Virus record (IMG/VR): IMGVR_UViG_3300009414_000001
Location: 25,821-89,820 of that record
Origin: a virus
Reading direction: 5' to 3' (one strand)
Length of the DNA stretch: 64,000 nucleotides
The notes under the pieces were generated by a model, which saw only the letters and a list, made by a program, of their open reading frames with translations, did no database searches and was not told where the DNA came from. Below are positions 2,495 to 2,905 of this stretch, one piece after another (position 1 is the first letter of the stretch; each line of letters begins with the position of its first letter). The position numbers and the translations under genes were made by a program.

Positions 2495-2905
2495 ATGTTA
2501 AATTATATATTCTTATCAATCATGTTGGCTTTTAACCCAGCAGCAGAATCAGCAACAAGCAATCTTGATCAAGGCACGCCATCAGTTCAAGGTAGCAAAA
2601 CAAAGCGTGTTGATTTTAATTTACTTGGCAGCAAAACAAAGCGTGTTGACTTCAACGTGCTCGGCAGTAAGTCAAAGCGAATAGCTTACGGTAGTAAAAG
2701 CAAGCGCATCGCTTACGGTAGCAAATCAAAGCGTATTGATTTTAATCTGTTAGGTAGTAAGTCGAAGCGAATCGACTTTAACTCATACGGCAGCAAGTCA
2801 AAACGAATTGACTTCAATATGCTTGGCAGCAAATCAAAACGCATCGACTTTAATATGCTTGGTAGTAAATCAAAACGCATTAATGCTGATTCCGTCAAAA
2901 TATAA
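2495..2905 (+). CDS. putative secreted tandem-repeat peptide precursor, 9x GSK(S/T)KR
   Basis: AAGGGA RBS; hydrophobic N-terminus with Ala-rich cleavage region; repeats conserved in protein but synonymous-diverged in DNA. Confidence 0.85.
   Translation: MLNYIFLSIMLAFNPAAESATSNLDQGTPSVQGSKTKRVDFNLLGSKTKRVDFNVLGSKSKRIAYGSKSKRIAYGSKSKRIDFNLLGSKSKRIDFNSYGSKSKRIDFNMLGSKSKRIDFNMLGSKSKRINADSVKI

Follow-up and report, generated by a model that had tools for sequence, protein, structure and literature searches.

A tandem-repeat peptide gene linked to a phosphatase, sigma factor and kinase cassette of marine phage-plasmids may encode an exported ligand of the kinase sensor

What role a small gene built of tandem repeats plays in front of three regulatory genes was the question raised by a 64,000-nucleotide stretch of viral DNA (hereafter the window), which corresponds to bases 25821-89820 of the 89,820-bp IMG/VR virus record IMGVR_UViG_3300009414_000001. 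The gene occupies positions 2495-2905 on the plus strand and encodes a protein of 136 amino acids (aa), in which a 32-aa non-repeat N-terminus is followed by nine GSK[ST]KR units. A preliminary description of the locus had presented it as a prohormone-like, multi-core precursor with dibasic KR sites. Our analysis demonstrated that the gene is real and selected at the protein level, that it strictly co-occurs with three regulator genes and that it has its own conserved promoter-like element and terminator. The reading that we tentatively prefer, and hold to be somewhat short of probable, is that its product is an exported pre-pro-peptide that would act on the tetratricopeptide repeat (TPR) sensor of the adjacent kinase.

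The repeat organization exactly matched the one first described, with units starting at aa 33, 45, 57, 66, 75, 87, 99, 111 and 123 (spacings of 12, 12, 9, 9, 12, 12, 12 and 12 aa), six of them carrying [VI]DFN followed by LL, VL, LL, SY, ML and ML, two carrying IAY and the final one terminating in INADSVKI. The nine units, GSK[ST]KR[VI] followed by DFNxx, AY or NADSVKI, span 2591-2902 (plus strand) and give the protein a V-K-I C-terminus. Tandem Repeats Finder reported periods of 36, 27 and 72 nucleotides (nt) in this open reading frame (ORF), with matches of 74-82%. Codons had been seen to differ between copies, from which maintenance at the protein level had been proposed, and this was borne out by Nei-Gojobori counting over every unit pair of the window's repeat. 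The proportion of synonymous differences (pS) was saturated at 0.80-0.87, that of non-synonymous differences (pN) was 0.07-0.12 and pN/pS was 0.09-0.14, indicating purifying selection on a genuine protein-coding gene. The repeat is therefore ancient at the DNA level and maintained at the protein level, and does not reflect recent slippage. Among the other frames of the ORF, +3, -1 and -3 were stop-rich, +2 contained three stops with a longest open run of 60 codons, and -2 held only a 61-aa mirror ORF.

The window peptide had no sequence homologue in any database searched. No real match was returned by a word-indexed HMMER search of 5.8e9 proteins, by tblastn against INPHARED phages or by scanning viral, metagenome and genome contigs for back-translated patterns; only sub-threshold noise was obtained with Pfam, NCBIfam and PHROGs, nothing in Rfam attained its gathering score, and look-alikes in the ESM Atlas scored below 0.9. 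The exact peptide was missing from a collection of 15e9 proteins in which its three neighbours were present; the ESM Atlas does contain it, with a low-confidence model (pLDDT 0.47). A full phmmer search of 1.84e9 representatives yielded chance repeat-to-repeat matches only (Arg/Ser, coiled-coil and neuropeptide repeats). One of these, P0007, is a eukaryote-type neuropeptide precursor with KR-separated xDPxMFGSLGKR units at a period of 12 aa, and its unit shares 7/12 letters with the window's GSKSKRIDFNML at an equal 12-aa period. We judged this likeness to be convergent or due to chance; it accounts for the prohormone-like look of the window sequence.

Relatives of the gene were located by synteny, for which kinase orthologues were found first (a handful, at 25-28% identity over ~90% of the length) and their neighbourhoods were then read. 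All six loci with upstream sequence (the window, L003, L004, L005, L006 and L012) carried one cassette in one order: a leader-plus-repeat peptide gene, a NinI-like PPP phosphatase gene, a gene for an extracytoplasmic function (ECF) sigma factor (PF07638) and a Hanks kinase gene. The phosphatase-sigma-kinase genes thus lie directly behind the peptide gene in 6/6 loci, which ties it genetically to a signalling module. The peptides comprise 80 aa in L003 (an Alteromonadaceae metagenome-assembled genome, MAG), with about four GSHSGKIRI units that abut without a linker at a period of 9 aa; 70 aa in L005 and in L006, with three copies of GSSRGKVRI and of GAKRGKVRV, respectively, each followed by a 5-aa linker; and 64 aa in L012, with three copies of GKKGKIRI. 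The L004 locus is a decayed copy with degenerate peptide repeats, a frameshifted sigma gene and a kinase fragment alongside. Repeat periods across the six loci were 27, 36 and 42 nt, all multiples of 3, the ORF was open in all six, and a Shine-Dalgarno sequence and an ATGTTA start were conserved.

The replicons that carry the cassette differ. Three of the loci (L003, L005 and L006) belong to telomere phages, in which the cassette is flanked by a TelK/ResT protelomerase gene on one side and a convergent RepA gene on the other, and L012 is a 57.6-kb viral contig without a protelomerase. With the P1-like window element this makes at least three replicon backgrounds, the degenerate L004 copy providing a further context. 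Such strict linkage in three or more types of replicon argues for a functional connection with the signalling proteins themselves; the peptide gene goes with the signalling genes rather than with a single phage backbone or phage repressor. Two features of individual loci were also recorded. The decaying L004 cassette (L004:7579-8002, 11719-12348 and 13216-13959, in an Alteromonadaceae MAG) has a 39-nt duplication at the start of the peptide gene, degenerate repeats with a net charge of 0, a 247-aa C-terminal kinase fragment and an extra, intact sigma gene on the opposite strand; its GH16 and MotA/B-like neighbours suggest a chromosomal setting. In L003, a perfect inverted duplication (1483-6464, around ~3970) carries the protelomerase, the peptide and further module genes just upstream of telN, and probably arose when the assembly folded back at the hairpin telomere of a linear plasmid prophage.

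Comparison of the six products separated conserved from variable parts. The leaders share the pattern ML[SN]x, about 10 hydrophobic residues and [ST]P..[VT][ED]A, contain no Lys or Arg and reach Kyte-Doolittle 11-residue maxima of 1.8-2.3. In 6/6 loci a net-acidic stretch of 9-20 residues (charge -2 to -4, counted by eye) separates the leader from the cationic repeats. In the window, the leader comprises aa 1-19 (MLNYIFLSIMLAFNPAAES; 2495-2551, plus strand), a hydrophobic segment without Lys or Arg that may be a Sec-type signal with a putative cleavage site at A-E-S, and an acidic or neutral spacer follows at aa 20-32 (ATSNLDQGTPSVQ; 2552-2590, plus strand). The repeat unit conserved in the family is G-x(2-4)-[KR]-[IV]-x-[IVFY] and the free C-terminus is [IV]-[KR]-[IV], which the window's V-K-I end fits even though its final unit deviates from the rest. 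Cys is absent from every member. Net charges range from +6 to +19, the latter being that of the entire window protein, with 0 in the degenerate L004 copy. Taken together, these features mark the peptide as a genuine member of a previously undescribed family of small proteins, which combine a hydrophobic leader free of charge with a spacer of acidic character and basic units in tandem.

The units of any one locus share their protein sequence and mostly differ synonymously, and between loci they diverge (GSSRGKVRI, GAKRGKVRV, GSHSGKIRI, GKKGKIRI and GSKSKRIDF), with a pN/pS of 0.62 between the L005 and L006 orthologues. Such identity within and divergence between loci is the pattern expected of a multi-copy ligand that diverges with its receptor. 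It is also the pherotype-like variation for which a comparison of orthologues had been advised. The proposed DFNxx and IAY cores were not conserved. Linkers vary from 0 to 5 aa, and the conserved stretch of each unit is the very segment that had been taken for a spacer. Likewise, the dibasic KR sites are present in 9/9 window units and in L006 (KK in L012) but missing in L003 (GSHSGKIRI) and L005 (GSSRGKVRI). Of the prohormone-like layout, the signal-like hydrophobic leader, the spacer and the tandem identical units thus remained, and the processing sites and cores did not.

The promoter and terminator ascribed to the gene were borne out in part. The terminator named in the preliminary description is present as a strong intrinsic one at 2927-2954 (plus strand; stem GCGGCGATTTATTGCCGC plus T-run). 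Behind the small ORF, the six loci largely retain the stem GCGGCAAnnATTGCCGC, in which L003 and L004 show G-to-A changes, and the T-run is lost in L012; the terminator lies 1 nt from the stop in L012 and ~20 nt from it elsewhere. The promoter required revision, since the sole nearby sigma70-like match (2469-2496) ends inside the start codon and cannot serve the repeat ORF. A sigma54-type promoter-like element, TGGATCGCTTCTTGCT (GG-N10-GC), lies at 2432-2447 (plus strand), 47 nt before the ATG. The canonical sigma54 geometry is GG at -24 and TTGC at -12, that is GG-N10-GC, and alignment of the six upstream regions revealed invariant GG and TTGCT columns at constant spacing (TGG-N8-TTGCT, with AGG replacing TGG in L012), 45-47 nt before each ATG. 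Matches to the sigma54-type pattern within the window were at chance level (3 against 2.8 expected), and the evidence is the conservation across loci. The exact spacing and the presence of RpoN in host genomes that bear the cassette liken the element to sigma54-dependent promoters, from which it differs by the L012 AGG and by the lack of a phage enhancer-binding protein and of a conserved upstream activator site.

No ECF-type promoter (-35/-10) was conserved upstream of the peptide genes in the six-locus alignment. The idea that the product is an ECF-regulated secreted effector was consequently weakened, as the conserved element is sigma54-type rather than ECF-type; the promoter type would argue against direct control of the small ORF by the ECF sigma factor. 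Apparently, the peptide gene is an independent transcription unit driven by host sigma54 and is not an obvious target of the neighbouring sigma factor, and because the conserved element is not ECF-like the peptide looks like an input to the sigma factor and not an output. The 5' leader region (2448-2494, plus strand) includes a Shine-Dalgarno sequence, AAGGGA, at 2485-2490, 4 nt before the ATG. A palindrome, AAGTGTnCAA..TTGACACTT, stands between the promoter-like element and the Shine-Dalgarno sequence; it is clear in L003-L006, partial in L012 and a weak remnant in the window. The covariation term from the alignment of loci was not supportive, and the palindrome could be either an operator or an RNA hairpin.

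Behind the terminator, the three regulator genes overlap at 3733-3749 and 4371-4374, consistent with a single operon. The phosphatase gene (3012-3749, plus strand) encodes a PPP-family, NinI- or lambda-phosphatase-like Ser/Thr phosphatase (PF00149, E=6e-14; PRK11439; phrog_246 NinI-like, E=4.5e-42) that is 39-46% identical to its orthologues. It is overlapped by the gene for the ECF-type sigma factor (PF07638/TIGR02999 type; 3733-4374, plus strand), whose L005 orthologue matches PF07638 at E=5.6e-10, and no anti-sigma gene is present beside it and the Ser/Thr kinase gene. The 1048-aa Hanks Ser/Thr kinase (4374-7520, plus strand; Pkinase, E=1.7e-24) consists of an N-terminal helical extension, the kinase domain, one transmembrane segment (~aa 474-496) and a ~550-aa TPR superhelix. 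A single dominant hydrophobic peak follows the kinase domain in 6/6 orthologues, and VAIK, HxDIKPxN and DF[GS] are retained in every one. An AlphaFold2 model of aa 497-1048 was all-alpha with a pLDDT of 82.8, and Foldseek matched it to TPR superhelices, the nearest being TTC7B, TPR subunits of APC/C, Tom70/71, OGT and LbcA. TPR superhelices are known as binders of extended peptides and C-terminal tails, and here the domain is predicted to be periplasmic. The window kinase is the most divergent member (~21-26% identity), with ~85 extra N-terminal residues and a ~28-aa insertion between the catalytic loop (HADIKPEN) and DFS relative to orthologues (4374-5300). NCBIfam matches to LanL and to the TOMM kinase were far below cut-off and confined to the kinase-domain region. 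A lanthipeptide-type (LanL) system was rejected on this ground, together with the absence of Cys and the transmembrane segment between the kinase and the helical domain; RTX-like nonapeptide repeats were rejected as well, there being no Asp at the RTX calcium-binding position.

Pairs of this kind are experimentally established for ECF43-type sigma factors and Hanks kinases, namely EcfP/PknT of Vibrio parahaemolyticus (PMC8999054) and EcfK/PknS of Xanthomonas citri (PMC13147305); the architecture of PknS, including its TPR sensor, has been described (PMC13147305), and for neither PknT nor PknS is the ligand of the TPR domain known (PMC8999054, PMC13147305). The likeness extends to a PF07638/TIGR02999-type sigma factor beside a kinase composed of helical extension, kinase domain, transmembrane segment and periplasmic TPR domain, with no anti-sigma gene. 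The window pair differs in being carried by phage-plasmids, always together with a NinI-like PPP phosphatase and a repeat-peptide gene. Among distant ECF relatives in 400 further genomes of the same order, the peptide motif was absent within 1.5 kb. The phosphorylation site may also differ from that of EcfP. In sigma factors of the EcfP type, the phospho-acceptor Thr takes the place of the acidic DAED motif in region 2.2. In an alignment of the six cassette orthologues, the positions that correspond to DAED read CPED, GVND, DVSD, SPDD, CPND and DVNE, so that the last residue stays acidic, and a Thr eight residues upstream, Thr59, is invariant in 6/6 orthologues just upstream of region 2.2 (sigma aa 50-75). 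It is possible that Thr59 serves as an alternative phospho-acceptor. In summary, the sigma/kinase pair is of a known kind, and its novelty lies in its occurrence on phage-plasmids, in the phosphatase that always accompanies it and, above all, in an orphan repeat-peptide partner that has a sigma54-type promoter.

An exported peptide that acts on the kinase sensor was preferred because the protein combines a leader, an acidic spacer and cationic repeats, because the TPR superhelix is predicted to be periplasmic, and because the units are the same within a locus and differ between lineages. The build retained in 6/6 loci, with its hydrophobic leader, net-acidic early mature region and cationic repeats, appears compatible with export. 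Host sigma54-RNA polymerase and a host enhancer-binding protein would transcribe the peptide gene as a separate, terminated unit, and the pre-pro-peptide would be exported by Sec. In the periplasm, the intact protein or cut units of 9-14 aa, each of which would end in a hydrophobic residue before the next Gly, would dock in the groove of the TPR superhelix by way of the strand motif [KR]-[IV]-x-[IVFY] that recurs in the units and of the free [IV]-[KR]-[IV]-COOH end. Docking would set the activity of the kinase, which would phosphorylate the ECF sigma factor as in EcfP/PknT and EcfK/PknS, the phosphatase would reset the system and the sigma factor would drive phage or host genes. With three cassettes located at repA-telN in telomere phages, a decision on lysis-lysogeny or maintenance is a plausible output.

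Several observations weigh against this reading. Export is not secure, because the basic n-region usual in Sec signals is found in 0/6 leaders and L003 and L004 show no obvious good signal-peptidase site; moreover, Sec handles strongly cationic chains poorly. Cell-to-cell signalling is doubtful, because peptides of 1-1.6 kDa would not freely pass the outer membrane, and a modulator confined to the periplasm is more realistic. A sigma54 promoter needs an enhancer-binding protein (PF00158), none of which is encoded in the 89.8-kb phage (one could be supplied by the host), and a conserved upstream activator site is absent, since in L005 and L006 the promoter begins 9-16 nt past the preceding gene; sequence upstream of the -24 element is unconserved. 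Comparison of sensor net charge with peptide charge revealed no consistent complementarity across loci, no units of the family diverge more than those of the window (KRIDF, KRIAY), and six loci, one of them degenerate, are too few for receptor-ligand co-variation.

Other explanations were weighed, of which the first keeps the peptide outside the cytoplasm. It might be an exported cationic effector, similar to a bacteriocin or antimicrobial peptide or to an envelope-modifying moron, that targets membranes or the envelope in the host or in competing cells, with the kinase, sigma factor and phosphatase as a sensor of cationic-peptide or envelope stress for immunity or regulation. Such a role is conceivable, though on balance we consider it unlikely. 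Eukaryotic multi-copy cationic peptides have a prepropeptide layout resembling that of the family, and the signal-like leader, anionic spacer, multiple cationic amphipathic units (KIRI, KVRV) and net charge of +6 to +19 would all suit it, as would the separate promoter and terminator, which are reminiscent of a cargo gene, and the responsiveness of EcfP/PknT to polymyxin (PMC8999054). However, the cassette contains neither an outer-membrane exporter nor an immunity gene, at 8-14 aa and with only 2-4 basic residues the units are rather short to be membrane-active, no net charge is left in the degenerate L004 copy, and strict linkage to the three regulators, maintained in different replicons, speaks for a direct functional connection. 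If the leader is not an export signal, for which the missing basic n-region would speak, the repeats could form a cytoplasmic or membrane-face array of docking motifs whose [KR]-[IV]-x-[FYIV] strands bind the PPP phosphatase, the kinase or the sigma factor as a scaffold, pseudosubstrate or phospho-switch inhibitor. We regard this as rather improbable. The window's KR[VI]DF and KRIAY resemble the PP1-docking consensus [KR][KR][VI]x[FW], the repeated strands are also reminiscent of calcineurin PxIxIT docking, the adjoining gene encodes a PPP phosphatase and the low-confidence structural model is consistent with a disordered motif array. Yet orthologue units end in aliphatic and not aromatic residues, Asp at the x position is disfavoured in refined RVxF definitions, and an RVxF groove is not known in minimal lambda-type phosphatases. 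A docking array would also leave the conserved hydrophobic leader and acidic spacer without a role, and it could not be a phospho-substrate, since Ser, Thr and Tyr are all lacking from the L006 repeats. The same residue count led us to reject the multi-Ser kinase substrate that had once been considered; in L012, the two Ser/Thr/Tyr residues after residue 30 both lie outside the GKKGKIR[IV] motifs.

The remaining explanations fared less well. Processing at KR to release DFNxx and IAY pheromone cores, in the manner of a prohormone or of the precursor of a ribosomally synthesized and post-translationally modified peptide (RiPP), now seems very unlikely. It was suggested by KR in each window unit, by two linker classes and by the resemblance to P0007, and the signal-like leader, pro-region and tandem units under purifying selection do recall the Kex2-type signal-spacer-repeat layout of dibasic-cut precursors such as yeast alpha-factor, fungal Kex2-processed RiPPs and animal neuropeptides. 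In contrast to those, neither the dibasic site nor the core is a conserved part of the window family, and no gene for a Kex2-like or other maturation enzyme (protease, cyclase, radical SAM) or for a transporter is conserved alongside, which together with the absence of Cys also told against the multi-core RiPP precursor that had been proposed. Location offered another candidate. The variable repA-telN locus of telomere phages houses SOS-independent lysis-control modules of a regulator and a small ORF, as shown experimentally (PMC10432266), and three cassettes occupy this home of small-ORF modules, so that the peptide might be a cytoplasmic antirepressor of the small-ORF (smORF) type, such as Qtip or smORF72 of linear plasmid phages, which inactivates the phage repressor and triggers lysis. 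We find this highly improbable, as described smORFs are repressor-specific (PMC10432266) and the peptide family also occurs in P1-like and protelomerase-free elements, whose repressors would differ; the gene is, in addition, co-directional and conserved with the kinase module, and its promoter is not that of the adjacent regulator. Equally little credence was given to a regulatory leader ORF that tunes termination or read-through into the regulator operon, or to evolutionary debris. Either might explain why the terminator lies close behind the stop and why several gene-calling pipelines missed the protein (the ESM Atlas has it), but neither fits strong amino-acid purifying selection over nine saturated units, protein features conserved in six loci or a length of 64-136 aa, which far exceeds that of known leader peptides.

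The exported kinase ligand that we prefer can also be set against known modules of temperate elements. The cassettes of L003, L005 and L006 resemble the transcription factor-smORF modules of linear plasmid-like phages in lying between the protelomerase gene and a convergent repA; this location is not shared by the window (P1-like) or L012 (no protelomerase). In such modules the adjacent regulator activates the promoter of the smORF. The cassettes differ in that the regulator is a trio of kinase, sigma factor and phosphatase, and in that the small ORF, which encodes a leader followed by tandem repeats, runs in the direction of the trio behind a sigma54-type promoter and accompanies it in non-telomere elements too. 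In the 2023 Nature survey of repA-telN loci, the word 'kinase' does not occur (PMC10432266). A second likeness is to arbitrium (AimP/AimR) and other RRNPP systems, where a mobile element encodes a small pre-pro-peptide that is paired with a TPR-fold receptor and varies between lineages, a pairing which for our cassette is inferred. Unlike arbitrium, the cassette resides in Gram-negative hosts, its TPR domain would be the extracytoplasmic sensor of a transmembrane kinase and not a cytosolic transcription factor, its precursor is multi-copy and no Opp-type import step would be needed. That phage-plasmids of Gram-negative marine bacteria encode both their own signal (a multi-copy, lineage-specific exported peptide) and its receptor (the periplasmic TPR domain of the kinase), with a phage ECF sigma factor that is phosphorylated and a phage phosphatase that resets it, and thereby steer lysis-lysogeny or maintenance, is an idea that we offer as speculative and, taken whole, unlikely. 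If true, it would constitute an arbitrium-like system assembled from entirely different parts, with the first ligand for an ECF43-class kinase, and peptide-receptor signalling of this sort would be without a described counterpart among Gram-negative temperate elements.

The element that carries the window's cassette is, by its gene content, a distant P1-like phage-plasmid of 89.8 kb. The record has direct terminal repeats and 40% G+C, and this assignment was made because its proteins include a terminase, a portal 33-35% identical to those of P1 and of Vibrio and Aeromonas P1-like plasmids, a tail fibre, a replication initiator and a DarB-like giant protein. Two large proteins are P1-type defence-evasion cargo: one of 2024 aa (30484-36558) has its matches in PHROG families for DNA methyltransferase and DarB-like antirestriction, and one of 1702 aa (41215-46326, minus strand) matches families of proteins released from the phage upon infection. 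The window DNA was found in one sequencing run only, a marine metagenome that is possibly its source, and the RNA runs listed numbered 0. In our assessment, carriers of the cassette are phage-plasmids of Alteromonadaceae-like marine bacteria, in which it is rare: the sensor domain was present in 3/401 Alteromonadaceae genomes and a close sigma factor in 2/401 genomes of the order. The L005 sensor domain had no match in PLSDB plasmids or cultured phages, the whole window kinase gave distant kinase-region matches only among cultured phages, and a search with the sigma factor retrieved only itself. Matches confined to the phosphatase (L013-L018) or to the promoter pattern (L027) were examined and proved unrelated to the cassette.

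Additional ORFs border some cassettes. Directly after the kinase gene, an 89-aa ORF without a Pfam match is found in L003 (10944-11213), L004 (10995-11264), L005 (7491-7751) and L006 (8396-8665); the window and L012 lack it. A conserved promoter-like motif, GTGAsAGTAAAC-N12-CGT[GA]T, stands before this ORF, which might belong to the cassette as its fifth gene or be controlled by the ECF sigma factor; the corresponding GTAAA-N11-14-TCGT motif was at chance level in the window. Just upstream of the L012 cassette, ORFs of 88 and 112 aa (4770-5367) presumably form an AbrB/MazE-MazF-like toxin-antitoxin pair, and another ORF (3093-3719) we take to be resolvase-like, both read by eye.

Kinase-activated ECF sigma factors are a recently established mode of signalling, and the repA-telN locus is known for sensory modules that decide prophage fate, of which only transcription factor/small-ORF pairs have been described there. 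The cassette joins these two themes and supplies a candidate partner in the form of a short, repeated peptide of simple motif that differs between lineages. Should the kinase not be the target of the peptide, the analysis still adds a hitherto unknown orphan protein family, together with a mobile module of four genes that is distributed across a P1-like element, telomere phages and a third viral contig without a protelomerase. If the kinase is the target, the peptide would be the first ligand for this class of kinases and would represent a peptide-based input to a Gram-negative temperate element.

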